NCBI GenBank assembly: GCA_039630415.1
Contig: JBCNVB010000026.1
Coordinates: 1 to 64,000 of the forward strand
Reading direction: 5' to 3'
From: a bacterium
GTDB taxonomy: Bacteria; DRYD01
Length of the DNA: 64,000 nt
The notes under the pieces were generated by a model. It did no database searches. It was not told where the DNA came from and saw only the letters and a list, made by a program, of their open reading frames with translations. The position numbers and the translations under genes were made by a program. Within the stretch, counting starts at the first letter, position 1; each line of letters opens with the position of its first letter. Below are positions 6,907-37,321 of the stretch, piece by piece.

Positions 6907-7875
6907 ATGAAAGCGATGATACTGGCAGGGGGTGAAGGAACAAGACTTCGCCCCCTAACTTATACCCTACCAAAACCCCTCGTACCTGTAAATAATCTAC
7001 CTTCCGTAGAGTATGTTATCAAGTTCCTCTACTACTTCGGAATAAGAGAATTCGCTATAAATGTTAGTTATAAAGCAGAAATAGTGAAAAATTATGCCTA
7101 TACGACATTTAAAAGGAAATTTAAAGATGCACAATTATTTGTTTTAGAAGAAGACCAATTATCAGGTACTGCAGGACCAGTAAAAAAATTACAAAATTTC
7201 TTCGAAAACCAGGATTTTATCGTTATCGGTTGTGACGATATATTTGACTTTGATTTGGAAGTACTTATCAAAGCTCATAAACAACAAAAAGCAGTTGCTA
7301 CTATAGCACTCTTTAAAGTTCAAGATCCTTCTGAGTATGGTGTAGCTCTGATAGATAAAGACAATAACATCCTTAAGTTTCAAGAGAAACCCAAATCAAA
7401 TCCAATATCTTACCTTGCTAACACGGGCGTATATATTTTTAGTCCGGAGATATTTAACTACATACTATCTGAAAAGTTCTATGATTTCGGAACGCAGGTT
7501 TTTAATAACCTTCTTGAAGATAAAGCTAAATTTATTGGAATAGAAGTGACTAACTATCCCAAATTTTTAAAGCAATCCTACTGGATTGATATAGGGAATA
7601 TGAACACTTATTTTAGGGCAAATAGAGAGTTGGCATTGTATAAACATCCTTTTATAGAGTCGAAAATAATAGAACATAGCAATAGTGTAGTTGTTTTGGA
7701 TGATAATGTAAAGGTAGATTCTAGAACTACGTTTGAAGGAGTGGTAGTAGTAGGTAGAGGTAGTGAAGTATCTGGGTATATAAGGGACAGTGTTATTTGG
7801 CCTAACAGTAGGATAGATAATAGCTATATAGTGGGAAGTGTGATAACGGGTCGGTTGGTGGAGTGGTTAAGTTAG
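6907..7875 (+). CDS. NDP-sugar pyrophosphorylase (mannose-1-phosphate guanylyltransferase-like)
   Basis: MKAMILAGGEGTRLRPLTYTLPKPL, FQEKP, YWIDIG, short C-terminal beta-helix-like repeats; start moved to ATG 6907. Confidence 0.9.
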   Translation: MKAMILAGGEGTRLRPLTYTLPKPLVPVNNLPSVEYVIKFLYYFGIREFAINVSYKAEIVKNYAYTTFKRKFKDAQLFVLEEDQLSGTAGPVKKLQNFFENQDFIVIGCDDIFDFDLEVLIKAHKQQKAVATIALFKVQDPSEYGVALIDKDNNILKFQEKPKSNPISYLANTGVYIFSPEIFNYILSEKFYDFGTQVFNNLLEDKAKFIGIEVTNYPKFLKQSYWIDIGNMNTYFRANRELALYKHPFIESKIIEHSNSVVVLDDNVKVDSRTTFEGVVVVGRGSEVSGYIRDSVIWPNSRIDNSYIVGSVITGRLVEWLS

Positions 7876-8181
7876 CCGCGGTATGACCTAAAAAGGGTTA
7901 TACCGAGGAAAGTCCTGGCTCTAATAAAAGGGTGCTGGAGGAACTCCAGGTGTGGCTTAAGGCTACAACGGATAGTGCCACAGAAACCAGACTATGTGGG
8001 GCAACCCACATACAGGTGAAACCGTGGGGTAAAAGCCCACGAACCTTAGTAGCGATACTAAGGTTGGTAAACCCCACCCTGAGCAAGGCTTCGAGCCGCA
8101 AAAAGTTCAGAGTAATCTGAACTTAAGACAAATGGCTAACGAACGACAGAACCAGGCTTACCTTCTCCACCTAACCGACCC
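7848..8181 (+). ncRNA. rnpB: RNase P RNA (type A-like, reduced)
   Basis: GAGGAAAGTCCTGGCTC (about 7905) and ACAGAACCAGGCTTA (about 8146) with a compensatory U-A pair in P4; P1 GGGTCGGTT-GGTGGAG/CTCCACC-T-AACCGACCC; P2 GTTAGCC/GGCTAAC; AGTGCCACAGAAA; GGTAAACCCC; GAGCAAG; P18 with GUAA loop. Confidence 0.95.
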
Positions 8182-9250
8182 TCACTGCCACCCAATCCTA
8201 CTCCTTCAAAAAATTCTCAACTACTCTATCCACTTTAACCAACTGCACTCTGCGCTTTCTAAACATAACACTTATCAAATACTTATAGTTACTGACACAC
8301 CCACAAGTAAAATAGACAATGACCTAGTAAACTTTATTAACTCTTTTGATTTTCCGATTATTGTTAAATCCTCTGACTACCATACTTTCGTAGTAAATAA
8401 AACTTTCCTTCAAAAAATAAAATATCACAATCAGCATGAATTCATATGGAAAGAAAGAAATTTTCAAATAGTTGACAATTTCATAATTGATCATTTATCT
8501 AGTAATGCGCAGGAGTATTATCTCAAATTAAGCTCCGAGTTTCAAAAAAATCACATAGATAAGGTTATCGATGCTTTTACAACTTATACTTTTTACCAGT
8601 TCTACAAAAAAGTTAACATGAATAAAGTCAGCATAAAGTTTCTAGTTGATAGCAAGTTTTTTTTATTGAATCCACAGGTAATTCTAGATGATCATGTACT
8701 GGGGATAAAGTTCTTTGTTGATGGTACGATTAGTTCCTCTACTGCTTGGATCAGCATGGATAAAGTAAATCTATTCTTAGATCCTAAGGAAGTTGATGAA
8801 GTAATACAAATAATTCAGAAAAACTATGTCTATCTTGAAAGGATATATTTGGCTTTTCATTGCATAGGAAGTCAAGCATTTAGATTTGTAATGTATTCTG
8901 TGCTTCCCAAAATTATACAAGTACCTAACATAATTTTGAGAATAGAACATTGCACCCTAATGGGGAAAAGTGAATTTAATGAAATAATAAGTTTAATACA
9001 AGCAAATAAGCTAAACTACAGGGTATACTTAGTATTAAACCCGGAGAGTCATGAATTTACAATAGATTACTTGTATAGGTATAAAGACTTCGTAGGTATT
9101 GGGTATGGTTCTGATTGTCCTATATTTGATTTGAACCTAAAACAAAGTATTTACAACTATATAGATGGTAATTTATGTAAGGAGACCAAGCAAAAGGTTA
9201 TAGAGTATGTCTTTGAGTGTAATCATAGGTTATTCAGAAAATCCGATTAG
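8132..9250 (+). CDS. Divergent, shortened amidohydrolase-3 (YtcJ-like) metallohydrolase
   Basis: DPHCH, GIKFFVDGTISSSTAW, FHCIGSQA, RIEHC and GSDCP occur in canonical order. Confidence 0.7.
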   Translation: MANERQNQAYLLHLTDPHCHPILLLQKILNYSIHFNQLHSALSKHNTYQILIVTDTPTSKIDNDLVNFINSFDFPIIVKSSDYHTFVVNKTFLQKIKYHNQHEFIWKERNFQIVDNFIIDHLSSNAQEYYLKLSSEFQKNHIDKVIDAFTTYTFYQFYKKVNMNKVSIKFLVDSKFFLLNPQVILDDHVLGIKFFVDGTISSSTAWISMDKVNLFLDPKEVDEVIQIIQKNYVYLERIYLAFHCIGSQAFRFVMYSVLPKIIQVPNIILRIEHCTLMGKSEFNEIISLIQANKLNYRVYLVLNPESHEFTIDYLYRYKDFVGIGYGSDCPIFDLNLKQSIYNYIDGNLCKETKQKVIEYVFECNHRLFRKSD

Positions 9251-9300
9251 TATGTGTATTATAAACAGGTTGAGTAGAGAGAATGTAGAAGATTGATAAT

Positions 9301-10071
9301 ATGAATTGGTTTAAAAATTTACTGGCGATAGCTTCCTATACGATTGATTATGAATTTAGAAGATTTTTACCTCATACTATAGTGTTTGGGGGGTTAGTAT
9401 TTGTTGGTGCTAGTTCTACGTTTAATTTCTTCGGTTTAAAGTTTCAGGAAAGAGTTTTTTATGATCTATCTTTGACTTTGATTGGAGTACTTTTGGTAGT
9501 TCTTGCTTTAAGTTTAGGAGTTTCTAATATTTCGCAAGAAATTGAAAGAAGAATAGTATATACTTTCATAAGTAAACCTCTATCTAGGGACCAGTACTTT
9601 ATTGGTAAATTTTTAGGTACCTCTTTCTTCTTATTTTTTGCTTATGTTTTGTTTAGCTTGGAGGTATTTTTTATCGTATATTTTTATACTTCTAAGATGA
9701 AATTCATTGTATTTGCCGCTTTGGGGTTACAGTTAGTAAAGTCCATGATTTTATTAGCCTTTACCATGCTTTTGTCTATTTTTGTTACAGCTCCTATTAC
9801 CATAGCATCAACATTACTCTTTTATGTATTTTGTGAAGCATCGGTACTTTACGTATCTACCATTTCTGAAGGTATCTTTAGAGATATACTTTTATTTATC
9901 AAACTGCTTTTGCCTTATTTTGATTATTTGAATATAAATCAGGGGATTATTTTTGAAAAAGGAGCACCAGTAAATATTTGGTATGTTTTCTTTGCTTTTA
10001 TTTATGGAGTATCCTATCTTATTTTCTTTTTAAGCTTGTCTACTTTGCTATTTAGTAAGAAAGAGTTATGA
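9301..10071 (+). CDS. ABC-2 type transporter permease (PilI/XapB-like)
   Basis: About 6 TM helices; EIERRIVYTFISKPLSRDQYFIGKFLG. Confidence 0.85.
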   Translation: MNWFKNLLAIASYTIDYEFRRFLPHTIVFGGLVFVGASSTFNFFGLKFQERVFYDLSLTLIGVLLVVLALSLGVSNISQEIERRIVYTFISKPLSRDQYFIGKFLGTSFFLFFAYVLFSLEVFFIVYFYTSKMKFIVFAALGLQLVKSMILLAFTMLLSIFVTAPITIASTLLFYVFCEASVLYVSTISEGIFRDILLFIKLLLPYFDYLNINQGIIFEKGAPVNIWYVFFAFIYGVSYLIFFLSLSTLLFSKKEL

Positions 10072-11237
10072 GTTATGTAGAAAAACTCTTTGATAATCAA
10101 ACTACGAGCGTACATATAAAAGAAGATAGCTTTGTTTTGAAGAAAGTTGGTTTACCTGGGAAATGGAAACTGATTCAAGAAGATAAAGTTTTCTCTTCAG
10201 AAGAAATAAAAGCAATTATTCAGGAGATCTTGGAAGCAACAGATTCTATAGTTGAAATAGACAGATCTAACACGAAAGTAGTTCAAATGGGTAAGTATAG
10301 GATAGTAATTGTATTTCCTCCTATAGCTGATAAAACAGAAATAACTATAGTAAAACCTATCAAAAAACTTTCGCTTGAAGATTATTGGAATGAATTTGAC
10401 GAGTATGTTAGGTATGAGCTAATGGATAGGATAGATGGTAAGATTGAGGGATTATTGATAGCTGGTGCACCGGGTCAAGGGAAAACTACTTTTGCACAAG
10501 CACTAACTGAATACTTCGCTAACAACAAAAAAATAGTCAAAACTTTAGAATCACCCCGCGATTTGCACGTCGAAGCAAACATAACCCAATATTCCAAAAA
10601 CTATGCAAGCATATCTGAAATATATGATATACTTCTTTTATCAAGACCAGACTATGTCATATTTGATGAGATGAGAAATGATGAGGATTTTAATCTGTAT
10701 GTAGATTTGAGATTAGCTGGTGTAGGAATGGTTGGTGTAGTTCATTCTACCTCACCCTTCGCTGCCATACAAAGATTCATTCACAGAATAGAACTAGGTA
10801 TTATACCCTCTGTTATCGATACTGTAATATTCCTAGACAAAGGTAAAATATCAAAGATTTTAACACTAAGTATATTAGTCAAGGTTCCGGAAGGTATGGC
10901 GGACCCAGGACTTGCTAGACCAGTAGTTGAAGTAAAAAACTTCATAGATAACACACTAGAATATGAAATCTACACTTTCGGCGAACAAACAATAATCGTA
11001 CCCATAGCTCAAAATAATCAAAAAATCTTAAAAGAAATTACTGAGAAAATAGAACAAAATGTAAAAACTATCCTTGGAAACAAAAAATTCAAAGTAGAAG
11101 TTATTAACTCAAGATATGCTATAATATGGGTATCTGAAAAGCATAAAAGAGACATTATAGGTAGAAAGGGAAGAATTATAAAGGATCTCGAGCAGATCCT
11201 CAACATGAGACTTGAAGTTAAAACTTTTGAAAATTAG
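10068..11237 (+). CDS. PINA-like (archaeal PINc/VapC-family) PilT-type ATPase with C-terminal KH domain, lacking the PIN domain
   Basis: FDNQTTSVHIKE, GLPGKW, GAPGQGKTT, TLESPRDL, LLSRPDYVIFDEMR, DLRLAGVGMVGVVH, YEIYTFGEQ, KH IIGRKGRII. Confidence 0.85.
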   Translation: MSYVEKLFDNQTTSVHIKEDSFVLKKVGLPGKWKLIQEDKVFSSEEIKAIIQEILEATDSIVEIDRSNTKVVQMGKYRIVIVFPPIADKTEITIVKPIKKLSLEDYWNEFDEYVRYELMDRIDGKIEGLLIAGAPGQGKTTFAQALTEYFANNKKIVKTLESPRDLHVEANITQYSKNYASISEIYDILLLSRPDYVIFDEMRNDEDFNLYVDLRLAGVGMVGVVHSTSPFAAIQRFIHRIELGIIPSVIDTVIFLDKGKISKILTLSILVKVPEGMADPGLARPVVEVKNFIDNTLEYEIYTFGEQTIIVPIAQNNQKILKEITEKIEQNVKTILGNKKFKVEVINSRYAIIWVSEKHKRDIIGRKGRIIKDLEQILNMRLEVKTFEN

Positions 11238-11279
11238 GTATACTGGCTTAAGCGGAATAAAATTGGTAGGTGGTGAAGT

Positions 11280-12173
11280 ATGAGATTATTTAAATTTTTT
11301 ATGTTGCTAATAGTTTTATTTATTCTTGGATGTGGTATCGGTTTTGGTATGTTTATGCTACTTGGTAGTGATCAACAAAAGGGAGATTCAGTGGCAGTAA
11401 TAAGGCTTCAAGGTATAATAATAAATCAAGAAGGTAAAGAAGGAACCATAGATAGCAATCAAGTAATATCGGTTTTAGATAGGCTTCATAAGGATAAGAG
11501 ATATAAGGGTATAATTTTGGTTGTGGATAGTCCTGGTGGAATGGCAGCACCTAGTTTAGAAATATGTGAAAAAATTCGTCGTATTAAAAAAGACAAACCT
11601 GTTGTAGTTTATATTGAAAGTTTAGGTGCTTCTGGAGCTTATTACTTTGCTTCAGCAGCTAATTACATAATCTCAAATCCAAAATCCTTAGTAGGAAGCA
11701 TCGGAGTTATTATCTCTGTACCACAAGTACACAAAGCAATGGATAAAATTGGAATACAGATAATAAATATCAAAAGTGGATACTACAAAGATGCTTTTAG
11801 CCCATTTAAACCACTTCAAAAAGATCAACAACAATATCTACAAAACCTAGTTATGGAATACTATTATCAATTTGTTTCTGACATATCAAAAAATAGAAAT
11901 CTAAAGACTCAACAACAGATAAAAGAGTTGTATGAGATATCAGATGGTAGGGTATTTTCTGCTAGAACTGCATTGAAATACGGCTTAATAGACCAAATAG
12001 GTTTCTTCGATGATGCAAAAGATAAAATGAAAGAAATACTTGGAAAAAAAGATATTAAGTTTATAGAGCTGAAACTTTACAAAAAAACTCCCTTAGACAG
12101 ATTATTAGGAACAAATTTGATGAAAGAAGTTTACCCTAGGATTAAGTATGGTGTTTGGATGATTGCTTACTGA
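11280..12173 (+). CDS. sppA: Signal peptide peptidase SppA (S49, short form)
   Basis: DSPGG, GASGAYY, GSIGV, SGYYKD, DGRVF; N-terminal TM. Confidence 0.92.
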   Translation: MRLFKFFMLLIVLFILGCGIGFGMFMLLGSDQQKGDSVAVIRLQGIIINQEGKEGTIDSNQVISVLDRLHKDKRYKGIILVVDSPGGMAAPSLEICEKIRRIKKDKPVVVYIESLGASGAYYFASAANYIISNPKSLVGSIGVIISVPQVHKAMDKIGIQIINIKSGYYKDAFSPFKPLQKDQQQYLQNLVMEYYYQFVSDISKNRNLKTQQQIKELYEISDGRVFSARTALKYGLIDQIGFFDDAKDKMKEILGKKDIKFIELKLYKKTPLDRLLGTNLMKEVYPRIKYGVWMIAY

Positions 12174-13149
12174 TGGATAACCAGTACTCTTTAAGAGACA
12201 TGTAGGTTTGGTACAGATTTTGTTTAAGATTGTTTGATGGATTATAAGATAGAAGGGATTTGGCTTTGGATATGTCTGCCCATGTAATTTGTGGTTCGTA
12301 GCTTTCATACTTACCCACTATTACTTTAGTTTCCTTTTGCAGAACTTCGAATATCATGTTAACAAGATCTACTACTTTTATGGGGTTATCACTCCCTATG
12401 TTGATTATTTCGAAGATTTTATGGTTTAGTAGATCCTTAGCTTTGAAAGTGGCTTTTGATGCATCTTCAACAAATGTAAAATCTCTGCTTATGTCTTTCC
12501 CTCTTATAACTATAGGTTTTTGGTTTATTGTATTCCACATGAATTTGTAAACTGCCATATCTGGTCTATTGTATGGTCCATATACTGTGAAGTATCTTAA
12601 AACAACAATACTAAAATTGTGAACTAGATGAAAATATTTGGCTATGTTTTCCGAGCAGAATTTAGTGTAAGCATAGGGGGAAAGAAAGTGATTTATGTAG
12701 CTTTCTTCTTTGTATGGTAGTGGATTACCTGAATACACTGATGAGGTAGATGCTATGATTAGTTTTTTATTAATGTTATTGTTGTTTTTAATAAATTCCA
12801 GTAAATTTTGAGTTGCTATGATGTTATTTTTGATATATTTTTGTGGATGTTTTAAACTATACTTAACTGAAGGATAAGCTGCAAGATGAACTACTAAATC
12901 AATCCCATTTTTTATTATCTTTTTTACAAAGTCTTGAAGATGTTCTAGTTGAGATTTATAGGATATATCTATTTCAAGATGAATATAGTTCGGAAAGGTT
13001 TGTAGTTTTGAAAGTCTGTATCTTTTTAGAGTTGGAGTATAGAAATTATTTAAATTATCTACCCCGAGAACTGTATAGTTTTGTTTTAGAAATTCGAGTG
13101 TTACGAAGTATCCAATAAACCCGCAAGAACCTGTTATCAATATATTCAT
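12142..13149 (-). CDS. NAD-dependent sugar epimerase/dehydratase (UDP-glucuronate 4-epimerase-like)
   Basis: TGSCGFIG, HLAA, ASTSSVY, YAYTK, LRYFTVYGP, RPDMA. Confidence 0.92.
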   Translation of the reverse strand: MNILITGSCGFIGYFVTLEFLKQNYTVLGVDNLNNFYTPTLKRYRLSKLQTFPNYIHLEIDISYKSQLEHLQDFVKKIIKNGIDLVVHLAAYPSVKYSLKHPQKYIKNNIIATQNLLEFIKNNNNINKKLIIASTSSVYSGNPLPYKEESYINHFLSPYAYTKFCSENIAKYFHLVHNFSIVVLRYFTVYGPYNRPDMAVYKFMWNTINQKPIVIRGKDISRDFTFVEDASKATFKAKDLLNHKIFEIINIGSDNPIKVVDLVNMIFEVLQKETKVIVGKYESYEPQITWADISKAKSLLSYNPSNNLKQNLYQTYMSLKEYWLSISKQSSKHHT

Positions 13150-25335: not shown

Positions 25336-27321
25336 TTATCCAAAGATCATGATTGCGAATGCTTTAGTCCAGTAATTGAGTGCCTTTGCGAAGTCTTTAT
25401 TTTGGAAGTATACTACTGCTATATTGAAGTATGAGGGCCAAAAATAGGGGTTAAGTTCTATAACTCTTTCCCATTCCATTAGGGCCAGTTTGTATTTTCC
25501 TTGTACGTAGTATGCTTCTCCTAGATTATGATGTGCTTGCCAGTGTTTCCTGTTTAAGGTTGTTACCTTTTGCCAACTTTTTATTGCTGTTTCTACGTCC
25601 CCCAACTCGAAATAGCTAACGTTTCCGATGTTCCAGTGAGCTTGCCAAAAATCAGGGTTATATAAAACTGTCCTTTTCCAATTCTCTAAAGCTTGCTCTA
25701 TATTGCCTTGAATATAGTATACATTTGCCATGTTAAAGTAGGCTTTCCAGAAAGAAGGTTTTAAACTTACACATTTGTTCCAATATTCTAGTGCTGTATA
25801 AAAATCAGAATTGTTGAAATATATATTCCCCACATAGAAATATGCTTCAGCAAAGTTGGGATTTATTTGTATACACTTATCTAGGTATTCAATTGCTTTT
25901 TCTATATCGTTTATCTCTAAGTAGTACATACCTAAACTGTAGTAAGCCATTACGAAATTTGGGTCTAGTTCTATTACTTTTTGCCAGTAATGGATAGCTT
26001 CATCTACTCTATCTTGGGAGAAATAGGCATTAGCGAGGTTGTACATAGCTTCGATTAGGTTAGGATTTATAACTAATGCTTTTTGCCAGTTTTCTATTGC
26101 TTCTTCGGTAAATCCTCTTTTGTACAGAGCATTAGCTAAGTTATGGTATCCCGCTGCGAATTTGGGATTTAACATTACTACTTTTCTATAGTGAATTATT
26201 GATTTATCTATTTCTCCTACTCTGTATAGTGCTGATGCTAGGTTGTAGTGAGCTACGAAGTTAGCTGGGCTTAATTCTACTGCTTTCGTATACTCTTTGA
26301 GAGCTTCATCTATTTTGTGTAACCCATCGTATGCTGTTCCTAAGTTGTTATGTATAAGTGGGTTGTATGGATCATATTCAGTTGCTTTCTGCCATTCGAG
26401 AATAGCTAACTCTAGATTACCTTGTTTAAAGTAGTTTGTTCCCAAAGTGTTGTGCATTACTGCTTTACTTGGTGAAGTGGTGTATTTTTTTGACTCTTTT
26501 TTTATTGAGTAGAGATTGTCAATAATTTCTCTAAAACTTTCGGGTCTATTTTCTGGTTCTTTGGATAGGCATTTATCGATTATGGAGGATAGCAGTGGAT
26601 TTATTGAAGGGATAATTTTTATAAGGCTTTTGTGTTGTTCTTTAACAATAGCTTCTAGGGTTTGGGTAACACTTTCTTTTTGGAAGGGATTTTGTCCGGT
26701 TAGAAAGTGGTAAAAGACAAGTGCCCAAGAGAAGATATCAGCTTTTTTTGATACATTGTCAGGGGATTTTATCTGTTCAGGAGCCCAAAATATTGATTTA
26801 TCTGAAAATTGCTTACTTTGAAATAAAAAACTACTATCCAAATATCCAAATGCTATGTTTAAAATTTTTATATTTTCTGTGTTATCTCCAAGTAGTACTA
26901 TATTTTTGGGTTTAAGGTCTTTATGAACTATGTTGTATTCGTGGATGTACTGTAGTATTTCTGCTATTTTTGTGAATAGGTCAATAAGTTTGTTTATATC
27001 TGCTTCAGAAGGGTTAAGGTTGGGTTTAAATATATCTTCGGCTTTAATTCCTTCAGCTTTTTCCAATGATACAAAATATATTCCTTCTTGCTCTTGAATT
27101 TCGAATATTTGGGCTACATTTTTATGCTTTATTTTGGTTGATAGTTGTATTTCTTTAAATAGTGTATCTCTTTTTTGGTCATTTTCTAGTAAGAATGGAC
27201 TTAGTATTCTTAGGTATACTTCTCTGTCTATGATAGGGTCAAATGCTAAATATATTTGTCCTAATGGTGTAGAATCTATTTCTTCTTTTAGTTGGTATCT
27301 TCCTATTGTGGAAAAAGCCAT
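25336..27321 (-). CDS. Hanks-type kinase-fold protein with about 11 TPR repeats (likely pseudokinase)
   Basis: HKDLKPKN, APEQ, ADIFSWA, KCLSKEPENRP; 34-aa repeats of the type AHYNLA...A...W.K...LNP. Confidence 0.9.
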   Translation of the reverse strand: MAFSTIGRYQLKEEIDSTPLGQIYLAFDPIIDREVYLRILSPFLLENDQKRDTLFKEIQLSTKIKHKNVAQIFEIQEQEGIYFVSLEKAEGIKAEDIFKPNLNPSEADINKLIDLFTKIAEILQYIHEYNIVHKDLKPKNIVLLGDNTENIKILNIAFGYLDSSFLFQSKQFSDKSIFWAPEQIKSPDNVSKKADIFSWALVFYHFLTGQNPFQKESVTQTLEAIVKEQHKSLIKIIPSINPLLSSIIDKCLSKEPENRPESFREIIDNLYSIKKESKKYTTSPSKAVMHNTLGTNYFKQGNLELAILEWQKATEYDPYNPLIHNNLGTAYDGLHKIDEALKEYTKAVELSPANFVAHYNLASALYRVGEIDKSIIHYRKVVMLNPKFAAGYHNLANALYKRGFTEEAIENWQKALVINPNLIEAMYNLANAYFSQDRVDEAIHYWQKVIELDPNFVMAYYSLGMYYLEINDIEKAIEYLDKCIQINPNFAEAYFYVGNIYFNNSDFYTALEYWNKCVSLKPSFWKAYFNMANVYYIQGNIEQALENWKRTVLYNPDFWQAHWNIGNVSYFELGDVETAIKSWQKVTTLNRKHWQAHHNLGEAYYVQGKYKLALMEWERVIELNPYFWPSYFNIAVVYFQNKDFAKALNYWTKAFAIMIFG

Positions 27322-31200: not shown

Positions 31201-33030
31201 TTGAAAAAAAGTGAGGTTAATTGGACTATGAATAAGATAAATAGTGAATTAATATTTAACTTGTATATAAAATCAATAAACAAAAACTACAATATTCCAA
31301 TTGAACAAGCTCTGCAAATAAAAGATACCGTAAATGTTGTAAATACAATTGATCCATTTGATACGTCTCAGTATCAGATACTTACGAGTTTATTAGGATC
31401 AAGGTTGGTTCCTGATTTTGAATATTTATTTGTAACAGGTTTGTATTTTTCGCTAATGTCTACGATAGGTGGTGTAGCATATATACCTAAAGATTATATT
31501 CAACAGATAGCAAGTTTAATGTCATCAACTAAGGATCCGTTAAAAAAATTTCTTTTTGATGAAAAGAATAAATTCTTCATAGAGAAGCCTTTAAGTGTAT
31601 TTTCTACAACTACTCCTAGTAAGGTGTTTGAATTTTTAGGTAATAATTTTGTAGGTCAAGCACCATTCGTTGTTAAACCAGATCAACTACCAGATAGTGA
31701 AAAATTACTTGAATTATTAACTCGATCTCAACAAATAAATTTAGCTTTAAGTAAAACTCCTTTCCTAACTGAAATCTTAAAAAAAGAGATAATTAGTTTT
31801 CTTAACGAATTTTCTGGTTACTTCAGTAAGTCAGGTTATCTAAAGAGATTGATAGAAATCACGGAAAATAACTATATGACTAGAAATAATATAAACATTT
31901 GGAAAAAGCTGATAGAAAGCGCAATAAGTGTACTATCTTTTGTTAGTGAATTTACTAAACCTATTCAAATTAAGTCAGAAAAGGAATTAAAGGATTATTT
32001 TGGTTATTTAAATCTTCTGAATTGGGTTCAAAAGAATCCACATCAATTCTATCAAATTCAGCAGAATATAAAAGACGAACGATTTGCAAAACTTATTAGC
32101 AATTTCGTATCTAATGGTTACAACTTGTATTCCAATCGTGAAGAGCTAATAAAAACTGCTTGTAATAGTCTTTACTCTATAATAGTTGGCATAGTAGCTA
32201 GTCACTTTAAGAAAGCTATAAAGTCTGGGGATTTGAAAAATGGTGATGGATTTTATTTTCTACAACTTTACACTCTTTCCTCAGCTTTGATAGATATGAT
32301 AAACAATGGAAAAACCAATACCACACAGTTTTATAACATAAAATATAATCTAAAAAGTATGATGATTTCTAAAAGTTATCTTTTCCCGCTTGTACAGATA
32401 TTGGATAGTAATGATAACTCGGTAGTAATTTCTGCTTTAGAGGTAATAAGGAGAATAGGTCAGAAAGTAGCTCCGTGGGTGATACAAAAAAGTCCAAATA
32501 TGCCAAAAGATAAATCGTTCTGGCTCAGATTGAATCTATGGACTAAAATCTACCAATCTCTTGATAAAAATGATCCTAACTATCAACAATACAGAAACTA
32601 CATGATTAAAAAATTAAGAAGTATTCTAAACTCTTACTCTGATGCTGTGAAGTTAAATTCATTCCTTAACAACTTTATCATCAATCAGGAAAGCTTTGAT
32701 ATAGTTGTAAAGAATTTAGACAGCATGCTAAATACAATAGGTGGATATCCAATCGCAAGTACATACGAAAATCCAGATTATCTCTTCTCACAAGTGGTAA
32801 GACTTAATTTCTTGACTAATCAAAATGCAAATCAAAGCAATATAAAATACAAAAAGGATATGATACATAATGAATTCATAAATAAGATAATGCATAGGGA
32901 ACCTATTTTAAGTAAATTAGTCACAGACTATAATGAATATAATTTGAACTTGCGAAATAATCCTAATTTGAAAGATAATCTATACAAAGTTATACAAAAC
33001 TACTATCAAGCAAGTATGCATTACCTGTAA
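31201..33030 (+). CDS. Hypothetical alpha-helical protein (start may be ATG 31228)
   Basis: 609-codon ORF; no recognisable motif. Confidence 0.75.
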   Translation: MKKSEVNWTMNKINSELIFNLYIKSINKNYNIPIEQALQIKDTVNVVNTIDPFDTSQYQILTSLLGSRLVPDFEYLFVTGLYFSLMSTIGGVAYIPKDYIQQIASLMSSTKDPLKKFLFDEKNKFFIEKPLSVFSTTTPSKVFEFLGNNFVGQAPFVVKPDQLPDSEKLLELLTRSQQINLALSKTPFLTEILKKEIISFLNEFSGYFSKSGYLKRLIEITENNYMTRNNINIWKKLIESAISVLSFVSEFTKPIQIKSEKELKDYFGYLNLLNWVQKNPHQFYQIQQNIKDERFAKLISNFVSNGYNLYSNREELIKTACNSLYSIIVGIVASHFKKAIKSGDLKNGDGFYFLQLYTLSSALIDMINNGKTNTTQFYNIKYNLKSMMISKSYLFPLVQILDSNDNSVVISALEVIRRIGQKVAPWVIQKSPNMPKDKSFWLRLNLWTKIYQSLDKNDPNYQQYRNYMIKKLRSILNSYSDAVKLNSFLNNFIINQESFDIVVKNLDSMLNTIGGYPIASTYENPDYLFSQVVRLNFLTNQNANQSNIKYKKDMIHNEFINKIMHREPILSKLVTDYNEYNLNLRNNPNLKDNLYKVIQNYYQASMHYL

Positions 33031-33111: not shown

Positions 33112-34485
33112 ATGAAAAATGAAGTTTTTAGGTTTATCAATTTTACAATAAAAATCCTTGTCTTTTACTTTATAGTTTCTTTTGCTCTAGTAATTTTGTT
33201 ACTACCGATATACATTTTGTTGGATAAAGTCGGTATTATTTCAATGTTTAACTCAATTGTAGGTGTAAATGGTGGTATTTGGAAAAATTTTGGTACAATA
33301 GGTTATTTTATAGGCTTGTCGGTTGTTGCTTCGTTGATAATTTTAACTGTTTTAATGTTGAGTGTAATAATAGATGTTTGGATAGAGCGGAAGTTATCAG
33401 CAAAGATACAGGGTCGTATGGGACCTACTTTGGTAAACTTGCCATTCTTACTAAAGCCAGGATACAAAAACATATGGCTTGGAGGAATAATACAACCAAT
33501 AGCTGATGTGGTCAAGCTTCTTCAAAAGGAAATAATGATTCCACAAGGATCTTATCCATTTCTATATGTTTTATCACCAATACTAGCTTTTTGTACTGTA
33601 GTAATAGCTTTTGGGATGTTCCCGTTTTCAAATAATTACATAATACTGGGTGGTTTAGATATTGGATTATTGTTTATTTTTGCTGTGTCAAGCTATATGG
33701 TTTTGTCCTTAGTAATAGCTGCTTGGGCTTCTAATAACAAATACTCACTCTTAGGAGGACTTAGAACTGTAGCACAAATGTTAAGTTATGAAATACCTCT
33801 ACTGTTATCTTTCTTATCTGTTATGATTTTTACGGGAAGCTTTAAAATAGTGGATATAGTTAATTTTCAGAATCAATATTTTTGGTTAATTTTGTATCAA
33901 CCACTGATGTTTATAATATTCCTTTGGTCGATGGTAGCTGAGAATAATAGAGCTCCATTTGATTTACCCGAAGCTGAGTCGGAGCTTGTAGCAGGATTCG
34001 TCACTGAATACAGTAGTATGGTGTTTGCTCTATTTTATTTAGCAGAGTATGGATATCTATTTTTTAATAGTGCAATAATAGCAACCATATTTTTAGGGGG
34101 ATACTCTCTTATTCCACATTCAATTCTGAATCTTTTTGCACCCATACTTACAAAGCTAGGTATATACCAATATATTTTGGCTGTTAATGATAACTTTATA
34201 TGGATAATCTTAAAAACATTCTTAATCGTTGGGTTGATTATGTTCTTTAGATGGACTTATCCGAGGATAAGAATAGATCACTTAATGGACCTAGCTTGGA
34301 AAGGATTTATACCAATAACCCTGTTTCATATAATTGTAGCATCTGTTGATGTACTACTATTTAAATCCAATAGCTGGTTTATACCTGTACTTTGTTGGAT
34401 AACATTTATCGTAGTTCTCTATTTAGCTTCAATTAAAAATCTCAGATTGTCAAGTAAATATAAAAATATACCCAAGTATGCATAG
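33112..34485 (+). CDS. nuoH: NADH-quinone oxidoreductase subunit H with N-terminal hydrophobic extension
   Basis: ERKLSAKIQGRMGP, QPIADVVKLLQKE, SNNKYSLLGGLR, AQMLSYE, NRAPFDLPEAESELVAG, RWTYPRIRID. Confidence 0.96.
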   Translation: MKNEVFRFINFTIKILVFYFIVSFALVILLLPIYILLDKVGIISMFNSIVGVNGGIWKNFGTIGYFIGLSVVASLIILTVLMLSVIIDVWIERKLSAKIQGRMGPTLVNLPFLLKPGYKNIWLGGIIQPIADVVKLLQKEIMIPQGSYPFLYVLSPILAFCTVVIAFGMFPFSNNYIILGGLDIGLLFIFAVSSYMVLSLVIAAWASNNKYSLLGGLRTVAQMLSYEIPLLLSFLSVMIFTGSFKIVDIVNFQNQYFWLILYQPLMFIIFLWSMVAENNRAPFDLPEAESELVAGFVTEYSSMVFALFYLAEYGYLFFNSAIIATIFLGGYSLIPHSILNLFAPILTKLGIYQYILAVNDNFIWIILKTFLIVGLIMFFRWTYPRIRIDHLMDLAWKGFIPITLFHIIVASVDVLLFKSNSWFIPVLCWITFIVVLYLASIKNLRLSSKYKNIPKYA

Positions 34486-34517
34486 AATGTATGTTTATTG
34501 TGGGGGAAGGATGATAA

Positions 34518-36182
34518 TTGATGATAGGAACTTTGAATTTCCTAGCTGATTCTCTTCGAAGGCTCATAGAAGGGCTTAATATAACCTATAAGTACTTTCT
34601 AAAGGAACCGATATATACTGTAAACTATCCCATAACTATAAAAGAGCCTTTTGCAAGATGGAGGGGGAAGGTAAGAGTAAGAGCATTTAATACCAAAGAA
34701 ACTATATACAAAAGAACCAATTTCTTAAATTATTCATTCAATTTACCCCCATGTGTTAGAGGATGTCCTGCTAATGTGGATGCAAGAGGATATGTTATGT
34801 TAGCTGGTGAAAAGAATTTTCTAAAATCCCTCAATGAAGAAGTAGTAAATAACCCAATAGCTTTCTGCTTTGGGAATTTGTGTACAGCTCCATGTGAAAC
34901 AACATGTAGTAGGGGAGTACAAGACCATAAACCCATAGCTATAAGATTAATAAAGAAAGCCATAAGTGAGTATAACATATTAAGTCAGTATAAACAAGAT
35001 AAGACAGTAAAATATACGGTTGTTTGTGAACCTAGTAATAAAAGGATTGCTGTAATAGGTGCAGGACCTGCTGGAATAGCAGCAGCGCACAGACTCCTAA
35101 GATATGGCCACAACGTTGATGTTTTCGAAAAATATAACTTCTGTGGAGGTTATCTATACTCTGGAGTAGCATTTTTCAGATTAGATAAAGACCTTATGAA
35201 TAAAGAATATGAAAATCTGGTAACCTTTACACCAAACGGAAGAATATTTTACAATGTTACTGTAATCTCTGAAGAGGAAAAAGAAAAGTATTCTAGGGTA
35301 ATTACGGTTGATGATATAAAAGAAGCGAAAGAACAAATTAATCACTTAGAACCATGTGCTATTAGTTTCAGTGATTTGGAAAATAACTATGACGTTGTCA
35401 TAATAGCAGCTGGAGCAACTAAACCTAGAAAACTCAACCTAAAAAATGCTGAAAAAGTAAACCTAATTCAAGCAGAATGGTTCTTGGAAGATTGGAATAT
35501 GGGAATAAGAAGCTATAAAGTAGGAAAAGAAGTGGTAGTAATAGGAGGAGGAGGAACGGGAATAGACGCAGCTAGAACATGTAAAAAAGTATTTGCGGAT
35601 AAGGTAAAAATAGTAGATATACTTGCTAGAGAGGATATACCAGTAAGTGAAGAAGAAAAAGTAGAAGCTGAGGAAGATGATGATATAGAATTCATATGCC
35701 AGGTTATGCCTTTTGAAGTAGTGGTTGATGAAAATAATCAAATAAAGGGTTTAAAAGTTGCTAAATGTGTCTATGGACCAACTCTACCAAATGGAAGAAA
35801 AAAGATCATTAGAACTAACGAAGAATTTGTAATACCATGTGATACAATAATCCTAGCAGTTTCCAGAGATATAGAAATACCTTTTGCTCCAAAAGATATA
35901 GTAGGGCCAAGAGGAGAGATAGTAGTTGATGGATTTGATACTATGGTAAATGGATTTGTTTATAGATTCGGTCAAACAAAAAGAGAGAAAGTATTTGCTG
36001 CTGGGGAAGCATGTTATGGTCCTCAACCTGCTATAGTAGCTGTTGCTAGTGGTAATAGAACAGCTGAAAGAGTCCATTATTACTTAACTAATTCTTTTCC
36101 ACCTATACTAAGTAATGATTTTGTAAATATTTTGGGTCCTTTGAATGTACATAAGGTATATCAAAAGGCTGTTTCGTTTTAA
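34518..36182 (+). CDS. Fusion of the NuoI N-terminal segment and a GltD-like FAD/NAD(H) Fe-S oxidoreductase
   Basis: GLNITYKYFLK..YTVNYP..ARWRG (NuoI); PCVRGCP, LCTAPCETTCSRG; GAGPAG, GGGGTGID, VFAAGE..GP (GltD family). Confidence 0.85.
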   Translation: MMIGTLNFLADSLRRLIEGLNITYKYFLKEPIYTVNYPITIKEPFARWRGKVRVRAFNTKETIYKRTNFLNYSFNLPPCVRGCPANVDARGYVMLAGEKNFLKSLNEEVVNNPIAFCFGNLCTAPCETTCSRGVQDHKPIAIRLIKKAISEYNILSQYKQDKTVKYTVVCEPSNKRIAVIGAGPAGIAAAHRLLRYGHNVDVFEKYNFCGGYLYSGVAFFRLDKDLMNKEYENLVTFTPNGRIFYNVTVISEEEKEKYSRVITVDDIKEAKEQINHLEPCAISFSDLENNYDVVIIAAGATKPRKLNLKNAEKVNLIQAEWFLEDWNMGIRSYKVGKEVVVIGGGGTGIDAARTCKKVFADKVKIVDILAREDIPVSEEEKVEAEEDDDIEFICQVMPFEVVVDENNQIKGLKVAKCVYGPTLPNGRKKIIRTNEEFVIPCDTIILAVSRDIEIPFAPKDIVGPRGEIVVDGFDTMVNGFVYRFGQTKREKVFAAGEACYGPQPAIVAVASGNRTAERVHYYLTNSFPPILSNDFVNILGPLNVHKVYQKAVSF

Positions 36183-36207
36183 ATGTGGCTGGGAGTAGGA
36201 GGAAAAT

Positions 36208-36594
36208 ATGGCTAAAATACCAGAGTATGTAAGGCAGGCAGTGGATATAAATGAATATAGCATAGAAGAGGGTATAAGGTGTTTGAGTTGTGAGAGCGGA
36301 GTTTGTATAGCTTGTGGATACTGTGCACAAATATGTCCAGTAAAAGCAATAAGAATGGAGGTATTACAGGACGATCTTGGAAGAACAATAGTGGAAAAAT
36401 TTGAAATAAACGTAAGTGCATGTATATTTTGTGGGCTATGTGAACAAATATGTCCCACCAAAGTTATAGAAATGGAAAATACCTATGAATTTGCTGTTTA
36501 TAACCAACAGGATGTTGTAAGAATGGATGAATACTTTGAATACGATGAAAAAAAATCCTTCGATAAAAGAATAATTGTTAAAAACAAGAAATAA
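36208..36594 (+). CDS. NuoI C-terminal 2x[4Fe-4S] domain preceded by a GltD-type RCLxC motif
   Basis: EEGIRCLSC, CIACGYCAQICP, FEINVSACIFCGLCEQICP, YEFAVY; own AGGAGG RBS. Confidence 0.85.
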   Translation: MAKIPEYVRQAVDINEYSIEEGIRCLSCESGVCIACGYCAQICPVKAIRMEVLQDDLGRTIVEKFEINVSACIFCGLCEQICPTKVIEMENTYEFAVYNQQDVVRMDEYFEYDEKKSFDKRIIVKNKK

Positions 36595-36598
36595 TAGA

Positions 36599-37321
36599 AT
36601 GCCAAGAAAAAAAGTAACCAAGAATATTAGAAGAATCACCGAAAAAAGCGTTGACAAAGAAATAGGAGAGGGAATTTTCTCAGCTAATCAATTGGAACAG
36701 CAAAAAGATGAAGAATTAGTAGAACTTGCAAAACAAGGAAATTTAGAGGCTAAAAAGATTCTAATACAAAGATATTCAAAATTCCTGTTTTCCAAAGTGA
36801 TACCTTTTTACATACCTGGTGGAGAGAGAGAGGATATAATACAGGAAGCATACATTGGCTTTTTGAAAGCTATAGAAGATTTTGATAAAAATAAAGGTAG
36901 TTTTTTCAACTTTGTAAATATATGTGTACAAAGACAGATAACTACTGCAATAAAATCATCAAATAGAAATAAATCAAAAGTATTAAGGAATCCTATATCT
37001 CTTGAATCTAGCATTTTTGATGAGGATTCTGGAGAGAAGAGTCTTTATGATTATATTATGCCGTCAAAAATTATTCAAGGATCTTATCAGGAAATCTCTA
37101 TTGAGGATGCCATTATAGATTTCATAGAAAAAAATCAAATAAAAGAAACTCTATTATCAAGGCTAACTCCAAAAGAAAAAGAAATTTTGAAGTTAAGGTC
37201 TCAGGGATTAACATACCAGGAAATAGCAAACAAAATGAATATTTCCTCTAAATCAGTTGATAATGCTTTACAAAGAATAAGAAAGAAAATAAAAAACTTA
37301 ATAGATAACATGGAGGTATAG
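36599..37321 (+). CDS. RNA polymerase sigma factor, SigH (Spo0H)-like
   Basis: REDIIQEAYIGFLKAIEDFD, CVQRQITTAIKSSNR, TYQEIA, KSVDNALQRIRKK; start uncertain (36575 or 36599). Confidence 0.85.
   Translation: MPRKKVTKNIRRITEKSVDKEIGEGIFSANQLEQQKDEELVELAKQGNLEAKKILIQRYSKFLFSKVIPFYIPGGEREDIIQEAYIGFLKAIEDFDKNKGSFFNFVNICVQRQITTAIKSSNRNKSKVLRNPISLESSIFDEDSGEKSLYDYIMPSKIIQGSYQEISIEDAIIDFIEKNQIKETLLSRLTPKEKEILKLRSQGLTYQEIANKMNISSKSVDNALQRIRKKIKNLIDNMEV

Follow-up and report, generated by a model that had tools for sequence, protein, structure and literature searches.

Which protein serves as NuoI in a complex I whose nuoH gene is followed by a flavoprotein gene, and what would a flavoprotein do at that position? 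The question is raised by the first 64,000 nucleotides (nt) of contig JBCNVB010000026.1 (assembly GCA_039630415.1), hereafter the window, which is contig C19 of a draft genome (G000; 31 contigs, 1.40 Mb, 89% complete), with close homologs of the window proteins carrying the NCBI name Candidatus Calescibacterium. NuoH is the membrane subunit on which NuoI normally sits, and directly behind nuoH two proteins are encoded that together make up one NuoI, the first consisting of the NuoI N-terminal arm followed by a GltD/Nfn-type flavoprotein of 554 amino acids (aa) in all, and the second, of 128 aa, being the NuoI core. An original prediction, made by a model from the letters and a list of open reading frames (ORFs), had proposed that nuoI is interrupted here by a GltD-like flavoprotein, and this was borne out with the arm and the core abutting and the domains Fer4_20 and Pyr_redox_2 lying between them. 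It is rather likely that the two proteins together serve as NuoI in this complex I and provide a path from NAD(P)H, probably NADH, through flavin adenine dinucleotide (FAD), the Fer4_20 clusters, N6a/N6b and N2 to quinone beside the route through NuoF. The features of the locus, the positions of which were confirmed on re-reading the sequence, are as follows.

33112..34485, forward strand: nuoH, 457 aa (Pfam NADHdh, 1.9e-99)
34518..36182, forward strand: NuoI arm plus GltD/Nfn-type flavoprotein, whole gene, 554 aa, with stop codon TAA at 36180-36182
34518..34700, forward strand: NuoI N-terminal arm, aa 1-61 of the 554-aa ORF (GLNITYKYFLKEPIYTVNYP...RWRG), from NCBIfam and PDB matches
34746..34976, forward strand: Fer4_20 Fe-S domain, aa 77-153 (Pfam 5.1e-10, profile positions 30-108 of 113)
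35043..36053, forward strand: folds that bind FAD and NAD(P)H, aa 176-512; motifs GAGPAG and GGGGTG (Pfam Pyr_redox_2, 2.5e-23)
36197..36202, forward strand: AGGAGG ribosome-binding site, 5 nt ahead of the next ATG and inside the 25-nt spacer 36183-36207
36208..36594, forward strand: NuoI core, 128 aa, with an N-terminal helix holding C25xxC28, two CxxCxxCxxxCP motifs and a YE tail
36575..37321, forward strand: sigma-70 family gene, between the NuoI core gene and icd

The arm and the core were each matched to NuoI on their own. The first 60-80 aa of ORF 34518 match exclusively NuoI models in NCBIfam (5/5 families, best E 0.0017), with residues 13-61 falling on NuoI model positions 13-60, and all 16 of the 16 PDB matches at E<=10 are complex I TYKY/NuoI/NdhI chains (best E 0.0015), although on its own the arm scores only 11.9 bits against the NuoI model TIGR01971. 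Within the arm T34, Y37, P38, R47, R49 and G50 are unchanged across 30 split and fused homologs. The 128-aa protein carries CIACGYCAQICP at aa 33-44, CIFCGLCEQICP at aa 72-83 and YE at aa 93-94, matches TIGR01971 at positions 41-116 of 121 (2e-22, 79 bits) and matches the NuoI/TYKY chains of E. coli, T. thermophilus and mitochondria at 2e-17 to 1e-11; its 10 Cys are invariant in 27 sequences, including the extra pair C25/C28. On the complex I chain 7ar7_I, arm residues 13-61 align with residues 20-67 and the core with residues 65-141, and because adjoining stretches of this chain and of the NuoI model are matched, the two window proteins complement each other as abutting pieces of one NuoI. 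Both assignments made in the original prediction, of the arm to ORF 34518 and of the remainder of NuoI to ORF 36208, therefore stand.

A TIGR01971 search of G000 returned the 128-aa core as the top NuoI match with the runner-up at 32.6 bits, and a second, intact nuoI was not found in this 89% complete genome. Across the family to which the genome belongs, just the C-terminal part of NuoI lies at the nuoH locus in 10/10 genomes, and in 9/10 an intact nuoI was not found. A full-length ortholog of the flavoprotein is present in 10 of the 11 species genomes of the phylum, the carriers comprising one family with two genera, and the orthologs (551-561 aa, 74-87% identity) all stop ahead of the ferredoxin part; the eleventh genome, from a different family, has merely a generic GltD-ferredoxin gene. 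NuoH identity within the family is 63-80%, the flavoprotein being equally highly conserved. The order nuoH-gltD'-nuoI'-sigma and the two-gene split are kept in all nine of the other family genomes, and counting G000 the two-gene layout is found in 10/10, with a spacer of 15-51 nt and no internal stops. The 128-aa ORF has its own AGGAGG site, so the second half is translated independently, and the start of the flavoprotein is probably ATG 34521 rather than 34518, since the orthologs and the database copy are 553 aa long.

Beyond the family the same architecture was found in one piece. The next tier of matches, at about 30% identity, consists of proteins of about 680 aa (554+128) aligning end to end with both window proteins, and the arm motif is present in 45 of 120 database matches, of which 12 are split and show no Fer4 motif and 33 are fused and have two. 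In the fused arm-bearing proteins the two Fer4 motifs are 38-40 aa apart, as against 28-72 aa, mostly 45-66 aa, in arm-less GltD-ferredoxin proteins, and a profile of the fused family matches TYKY/NuoI chains at about 7e-33 over two separate stretches. Likewise, in a search of 1.84 billion cluster representatives, 12 of the best 150 matches span the profile from arm to core. In L024, from an actinobacterial metagenome-assembled genome (MAG; G011), the fused gene occupies the nuoI slot of a nuoB-(C)-D-H-[I::GltD]-J-K-L-M-N operon, and six further loci (L124-L129) have the order nuoD-nuoH-[fused]-nuoJ-K-L, such that the fused gene sits between nuoH and nuoJ in 7/7 loci examined. The design is common in the actinobacterial class of L024, with a near-full-length copy in 79 of 201 sampled genomes (58-73% identity) and fragments in 3 more. 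L024 was the sole arm-covering locus among the 80 matches listed by the related-locus search, most of the others being arm-less GltD-ferredoxin genes; L070, matched from residue 68, was rejected as an arm-bearing relative on being recognised as an FlpD/MTHFR-linked arm-less protein, and L037 (Thermotogae) showed no complex I neighbours on its 9.5-kb contig.

The operons with the fused gene carry no nuoEFG, and NuoF was not found in G011, the one fused-form genome searched. Its only PF01512 match was considered as a detached NuoF and rejected, being RnfC beside RnfD; the Rnf cluster of G011 adjoins the C-terminal end of a NiFe hydrogenase large-subunit gene. G011 holds two nuo operons, L024 with the fused NuoI::GltD and L118 with an ordinary NuoI, and the canonical NuoI of L118 matches arm-bearing proteins twice, in the arm and in the core, with a median of 49 bits compared with 13 bits for the others. 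The original prediction had called for a search for the architecture in other genomes, which has thus returned the split form throughout the family and the fused form in the nuoI slot of nuo operons.

A complex prediction of the two window proteins, run with custom alignments and four added 4Fe-4S clusters, gave a score of 0.77 against 0.00 for the best control; in a calibration from which these inputs differ, the 0.77 mark was reached by 116/157 solved complexes and 2/215 mismatched pairs. Contact agreement between runs was at least 81% and the partner predicted local distance difference test score (pLDDT) at least 69. The predicted interface joins residues 44-79, 90-101 and 131-152 of the first chain to residues 14-35 and 59-95 of the second, and has two parts. 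In one, the end of the arm (aa 44-79) is predicted to lie on the ferredoxin core (aa 59-95) in a NuoI-like manner, while in the other the helix and CxxC of the 128-aa protein (aa 14-35) are placed on the Fer4_20 helices (90-101, 131-152) and on P77/P78 beside C79. Binding of the two proteins is supported by this model, and a [4Fe-4S] cluster shared between the chains would fit the predicted interface. The multimer envisaged in the original prediction included NuoB, NuoC, NuoD and NuoH; the binding predicted here is that of the two halves modelled as a pair.

Both domains of ORF 34518 exceed their Pfam cut-offs (Fer4_20, 39.6 vs 25.8 bits; Pyr_redox_2, 83.4 vs 26.1), and a scan with hidden Markov models, which the original prediction had suggested as a check, returned the NuoI arm, Fer4_20 and Pyr_redox_2 on ORF 34518 and the NuoI core on ORF 36208. 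The putative Fe-S residues C79, C83, C122, C126, E127 and C130 do not vary among 30 split and fused sequences, and neither do G181, G183, P184, G186, G343-G345, D350, A352 and R353 of the dinucleotide sites. The closest solved sequences are 8oh5_C (4.4e-50) and 9bov_A, the GltD-like, NADPH-binding modules of NfnABC/StnABC large subunits, and the closest folds to a modelled fused homolog are 9bov_A (7.3e-41), 8oh5_C and 9n5u_A, with NfnI/NfnB, GltD and DPD after them. The glutamate synthase models TIGR01316, TIGR01317 and TIGR01318 are not reached (172.7 vs 471.75, 126.7 vs 447.7 and 140.4 vs 482.95), and because no glutamate synthase equivalog is attained the module is regarded as GltD-like rather than as a glutamate synthase subunit. 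Of the GltD-like oxidoreductase originally proposed, the domains and Fe-S ligands are thus upheld, but the nearest type by sequence is NfnABC/StnABC and not GltD proper. The PRK12771 model (NF009410) also falls below its cut-off for ORF 34518 (261.1 vs 516) and matches ORF 36208 at model positions 499-564 only (34 bits). Compared with the fused homologs the Calescibacterium flavoprotein has two lineage-specific insertions in the flavin domains, of about 32 aa (aa ~252-283) and about 10 aa (~477-486).

Two features of the module bear on how it may work. The Fer4_20 match lacks the first ~29 profile positions and hence the usual leading CxxC, beginning at 'PPCxxxCP', and the 'RCLxC' segment that follows the flavin domains, RCLEC in the alignment with 9bov_A, corresponds in the window to the start of the 128-aa protein (C25, C28). 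The N-terminal segment of the 128-aa protein may be the relocated start of Fer4_20, an idea whose only grounds are that its CxxC is invariant, that the Fer4_20 match is truncated and that contacts are predicted there; Pfam Fer4_20 gave no significant match to the N-terminal end of ORF 36208 (E 0.5, profile positions 15-78). The second feature concerns nucleotide preference. The motif 'YRR' after the second Rossmann strand binds the 2'-phosphate of NADPH, and an acidic residue at that site points to NADH by Rossmann-fold reasoning, as in NADH-type glutamate synthase. The window protein has 'KIVDILARED' where relatives have 'YRR', with 'ivdilaredipv' opposite 'iiyrrtidempa' in the alignment with 8oh5_C, which confirms the DIL observed in the original prediction. 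The site varies among homologs, being 'VDIL' in the window and 'CLE' in the large fused class, with 'YRR' kept in fused P0013, P0123, P0127, P0129 and P0135. The acidic 'VDIL' suggests NADH over NADPH for the window protein.

Whether the module is the only entry for nicotinamide electrons depends on the rest of complex I, which is present and intact in G000, though scattered. The nuo genes are spread over at least nine loci, each amid unrelated housekeeping genes, with no single nuo operon, and the split gene lies directly after nuoH with nuoJ-K on a different contig. The distribution is as follows.

C4: nuoA-B and a 244-aa Fe-S protein
C23: nuoC
C6: nuoD
C8: nuoJ-K and nuoL, 18 kb apart
C16: nuoM-N
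C19: nuoH and the split nuoI
C5: nuoF and nuoE, 21 kb apart

NuoD passes the NuoD equivalog NF004739 (444.9 vs 360) and NuoB is likewise above its curated cut-off. The nuoH of the window is the sole PF00146 match within G000, its top NCBIfam matches being NuoH models with every one under its equivalog cut-off. A 488-aa protein has NuoF as its best match, and the best match of the 244-aa protein is HoxU, equivalent to the N-terminal Fe-S part of NuoG; NuoF-like genes occur in 11/11 genomes of the phylum and the 244-aa protein in 10/11. The original prediction had left open an input without or alongside NuoEFG. With nuoE, nuoF and a short, HoxU-like nuoG all found in G000, the first of these fell away and 'alongside' is the only option left. 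Judged from these sequences, G000 has the classical input module, though its NuoG is missing the large C-terminal domain, and the GltD module would be an addition to it. The possibility that the HoxEFU-like trio belongs with a NiFe hydrogenase was considered and rejected, a NiFe hydrogenase large subunit not being found in G000 (89% complete). Several relatives (G004, G005, G006, G007 and others), not G000, have a second, longer NuoF-like frame of 624-650 aa, and most of these also have a HoxU/HydA-like frame of 412-585 aa (in G008 partial, 239 aa); the two may belong to a HydABC-like soluble enzyme.

In the neighbourhood of the locus, icd, mdh and citrate synthase lie further along the same strand, as the original prediction had noted, with the sigma-70 family gene, absent from that account, intervening. 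Read from its listed TTG start, the sigma-70 gene shares 20 nt (36575-36594) with the end of the NuoI core gene, and sigma-70 homologs align only from about residue 5-37, so the true start may be further downstream. Immediately 5' of nuoH a 609-aa ORF (31201-33030, forward strand) has no Pfam family at E<=0.01, and a 661-aa protein at 25336-27321 on the reverse strand joins a Ser/Thr protein kinase domain to a long tetratricopeptide repeat array.

The insertion of input modules into NuoI appears to have taken more than one form. In L094, from a Chloroflexia MAG (7025-12202), nuoI is broken after the first cluster motif (model position 67), between nuoH and nuoJ, and is spread over three genes, the first fusing the NuoI arm and first cluster motif to a NuoE domain, the second encoding NuoF and the third, of 862 aa, combining a [2Fe-2S] domain, a GltD module, a NuoG-type ferredoxin domain (Fer4_Nqo3) and the second half of NuoI. 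The three genes appear to place an Nfn/Stn-like set of proteins within nuoI. L094 resembles the locus in the window in that NuoI is interrupted by an input module containing a GltD-like domain, and differs in the break, which follows the first cluster motif, and in the insert, a NuoE-, NuoF- and StnC-like set over three genes. A further design is seen in P0203, a cluster representative of 633 aa with the NuoI arm and first motif at aa 13-64, then the GltD module, and the second motif at aa 561, which suggests independent insertion points in NuoI. A maximum-likelihood tree was built quickly for the GltD core from 71 rows, with a midpoint root and with the Shimodaira-Hasegawa-like approximate likelihood-ratio test as its sole measure of support; in it two fused proteins are the sister group (99) of the Calescibacterium clade (100), which sits on a long branch of 1.86. 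Because this clade nests among other fused proteins, the tree suggests that the split form arose by fission of a fused ancestor.

Building on the anatomy, conservation, operon position and predicted binding established above, we infer from the sequences the cofactor content, the direction of electron flow, the nucleotide preference and the co-residence with NuoEF. The first 61 residues of the 554-aa protein would be the NuoI arm, lying on NuoH and packing against the ferredoxin core, and the 128-aa protein would be that core, holding clusters N6a and N6b. The inserted GltD-like module would carry FAD and two [4Fe-4S] clusters besides a site for nicotinamide. Two contacts would rejoin the halves, that of arm and core as in an ordinary NuoI and that of the N-terminal helix of the 128-aa protein with Fer4_20 near Cys79, where the extra CxxC probably completes a cluster that the truncated Fer4_20 alone could not ligate. 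Electrons would pass from NAD(P)H to FAD, through the two [4Fe-4S] clusters to N6a/N6b, and on to N2 in NuoB and quinone. In Calescibacterium electrons would have in the GltD module a second way in besides the classical site with flavin mononucleotide (FMN), since the genome keeps NuoE, NuoF and the HoxU-like short NuoG, whereas the fused actinobacterial orthologs would have no nicotinamide site but this one, given that the operon is without nuoEFG and G011 is without NuoF.

A more elaborate version of this scheme is tentative, though possible: one proton pump would bear two sites for nicotinamide, namely NuoF-FMN, accompanied by NuoE and the short NuoG, and GltD-FAD in NuoI, the halves of which would be joined by a shared [4Fe-4S] cluster held by Cys25/Cys28 and Cys79/Cys130. 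A complex I of this kind could accept NADH as well as NADPH for oxidation, or could couple NADH/NADPH transhydrogenation or confurcation to quinone reduction and proton pumping. NuoF, NuoE, the HoxU-like NuoG and the GltD module are the same four building blocks as those of the soluble NfnABC/StnABC transhydrogenases, and appreciable weight is given to a two-flavin complex I because the same four blocks are tied to NuoI in L094.

Several observations weigh against reading the two proteins as a NuoI that admits electrons from NAD(P)H. The support for the arm from the single sequence is weak, with E about 0.002, and the 79 bits of the core are below the whole-protein cut-off of TIGR01971 (113.05), as is expected of a partial protein. 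The arm-bearing proteins do not form one clade in the GltD-core tree, requiring 7 changes, at least 3 of them forced by the starred branches. One relative, the Calescibacterium-genus draft G008 (73% complete), has besides the split one a full-length canonical NuoI (131 bits, G008:C159:179-556), which lies on a small contig near the contig start and may be contamination or a true second copy. The score of the predicted complex may lean in part on NuoI and Nfn/Stn structures that had already been solved. For fused P0016, AlphaFold gave a confident model of the GltD core only, with the arm (1-80) and the C-terminal domain (576-683) at pLDDT below 50. NuoE, NuoF and the short NuoG are present and kept in the family, such that NADH input does not need the GltD module; the direction of electron flow is not determined by sequence; and a search of sequencing runs for the locus returned one DNA run, perhaps from the source sample itself, and no RNA run.

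How far these points favour another explanation can be judged from the same data. The GltD module might serve as an electron outlet, NAD(P)+ being reduced at its flavin by electrons from ferredoxin or, by reverse flow, from quinol. GltD/Nfn-type modules are reversible in known enzymes, and the closest solved relatives of the window protein are transhydrogenases. An NAD(P)+-reducing role was proposed in 2015 for an Mbx-like case, according to the available portion of that article (PMC4758237), and fused forms occur in anaerobes that are said to be without NuoEFG and thought to use ferredoxin in what is accessible of PMC9686372. Such an outlet nevertheless seems unlikely in the window, as Calescibacterium is described in the accessible parts of two reports as an aerobic heterotroph of alkaline springs at ~80 °C with a haem-copper oxidase and a tricarboxylic acid cycle (PMC4791363; PMC11696919), the locus adjoins icd, mdh and citrate synthase, NuoD is above the quinone-type NuoD equivalog cut-off, and a ferredoxin-docking element was not identified. 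That all electrons pass by NuoF, with the flavoprotein mainly structural, turning over no nucleotide and taking the place of the missing NuoG C-terminal domain, is improbable. The conserved presence of NuoE, NuoF and the 244-aa HoxU-like NuoG would suit this, as would the long branch of the Calescibacterium clade (1.86) and its lineage-specific insertions, and the C-terminal domain of NuoG in canonical complex I is itself a degenerate enzyme fold; yet the dinucleotide motifs, Fe-S ligands and extra CxxC are invariant across split and fused forms, and in G011, where NuoF was not found, the GltD module is left as the sole candidate nicotinamide site.

A GltD module followed by a two-cluster domain is a common soluble architecture, as the many arm-less matches attest, and NF009410 matches both ORFs (261 and 34 bits), which could make the pair a soluble NAD(P)H:acceptor oxidoreductase of the PRK12771 kind, merely beside nuoH and outside complex I. 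This is very improbable: complex I would be left without any NuoI, the arm is specific to NuoI, the cluster spacing is 38-40 aa, the ordinary NuoI scores higher against arm-bearing than against arm-less proteins (median 49 vs 13 bits), the fused form replaces nuoI within nuo operons in 7/7 loci, and the NF009410 score is below its cut-off (261 vs 516). The draft state of the genome, in 31 contigs, would allow the split to be an assembly or frameshift artefact or a decaying gene, which is scarcely credible when the same layout recurs in 10/10 genomes of two genera with a 15-51 nt spacer and no internal stops, the second gene has a strong ribosome site and identity is high across genera. The reading of the two proteins as a NuoI that feeds complex I through an inserted flavoprotein is therefore preferred.

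The donor of complex-I-like enzymes without NuoEFG has long been a question, with ferredoxin the usual guess, also for the actinobacterial group that commonly carries the fused gene and has two cultured isolates; for the first OPB41 isolates nuoNMLKJIHDCBA is listed, NuoEFG is absent and ferredoxin is suggested as donor, all in the accessible portion of one article (PMC9686372). A flavoprotein with a nicotinamide site inside NuoI is a concrete candidate donor site for that NuoEFG-less subset, and it would give complex I a new attachment place for an input module, next to N6a/N6b, with a possible two-flavin complex I in Calescibacterium. More generally, the GltD unit of the Nfn/Stn type acts like a cassette, able to slot into more than one kind of Fe-S protein. 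Homologs are named at source 'FAD-dependent oxidoreductase', 'NADPH-dependent glutamate synthase beta subunit-like oxidoreductase' or 'hypothetical protein', with NuoI in none of the names, so that current annotation conceals the link to NuoI and the NuoI-GltD design may be an overlooked route of electron feed into complex I. The original prediction had presented the arrangement as a candidate new input module. A description of a NuoI-GltD fusion or split was not found in the literature covered, subscription journals and supplements lying outside it, and the accessible part of one complex I survey (PMC4453560) does not mention NuoI-GltD; the claim of novelty holds to this extent and is reduced by the frequency of the fused form in public genomes (79/201) and by the remark on GltD in place of NuoI made in 2015, in what is available of that paper (PMC4758237).

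Compared with known systems, the pair shares with canonical NuoI/Nqo9/TYKY (NDUFS8) the arm motif, two CxxCxxCxxxCP motifs about 39 aa apart, the YE tail and the gene position after nuoH. Canonical NuoI is one polypeptide of ~160-180 aa with the arm joined directly to the core, whereas here a flavoprotein of ~490 aa is inserted, the gene is in two pieces and the core has an extra invariant CxxC. The NfnABC/StnABC enzymes (9bov_A, 8oh5_C, 9n5u_A) are electron-bifurcating transhydrogenases, with which the window protein shares a Fer4_20 that starts from 'PPCxxxCP', the trailing 'RCLxC' and the insertion of the module in an Fe-S electron-transfer protein. Their module sits in a HydA/NuoG-like subunit, part of a soluble complex whose other members resemble NuoE and NuoF, whereas in the present case it sits in the NuoI of a membrane proton pump; 'YRR' in those enzymes stands where the window protein has 'DIL', and the N-terminal [2Fe-2S] and C-terminal HydA/formate-dehydrogenase-like domains of the NfnABC/StnABC chain are absent from ORF 34518 and ORF 36208. 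The nearest published idea concerns Mbx-like operons of Thermotoga and proteobacteria, in which, as given in the accessible portion of the article, a gltD-related flavoprotein replaces NuoI and was proposed to reduce NAD(P)+ (Degli Esposti, 2015; PMC4758237). The shared idea is a GltD-type flavoprotein supplying an NAD(P) site at the NuoI position. The systems treated in that portion are Mrp/Mbx-type non-quinone complexes with an NAD(P)+-reducing outlet, the dissection into arm and core, the split and the nuo-operon form not being described there, whereas G000 has, instead of an Mrp/Mbx arm, a NuoD of the NuoD equivalog together with NuoA, H, J, K, L, M and N. With the NuoEFG N-module and the HoxEFU diaphorase, to which kind the NuoE, NuoF and HoxU-like proteins of G000 themselves belong, the GltD module would share its role, from nucleotide to flavin to an Fe-S chain to N6a. 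In NuoEFG/HoxEFU, FMN is held by NuoF and separate subunits dock via NuoG, whereas the GltD module, of another fold and with FAD as its putative flavin, is a domain within NuoI.

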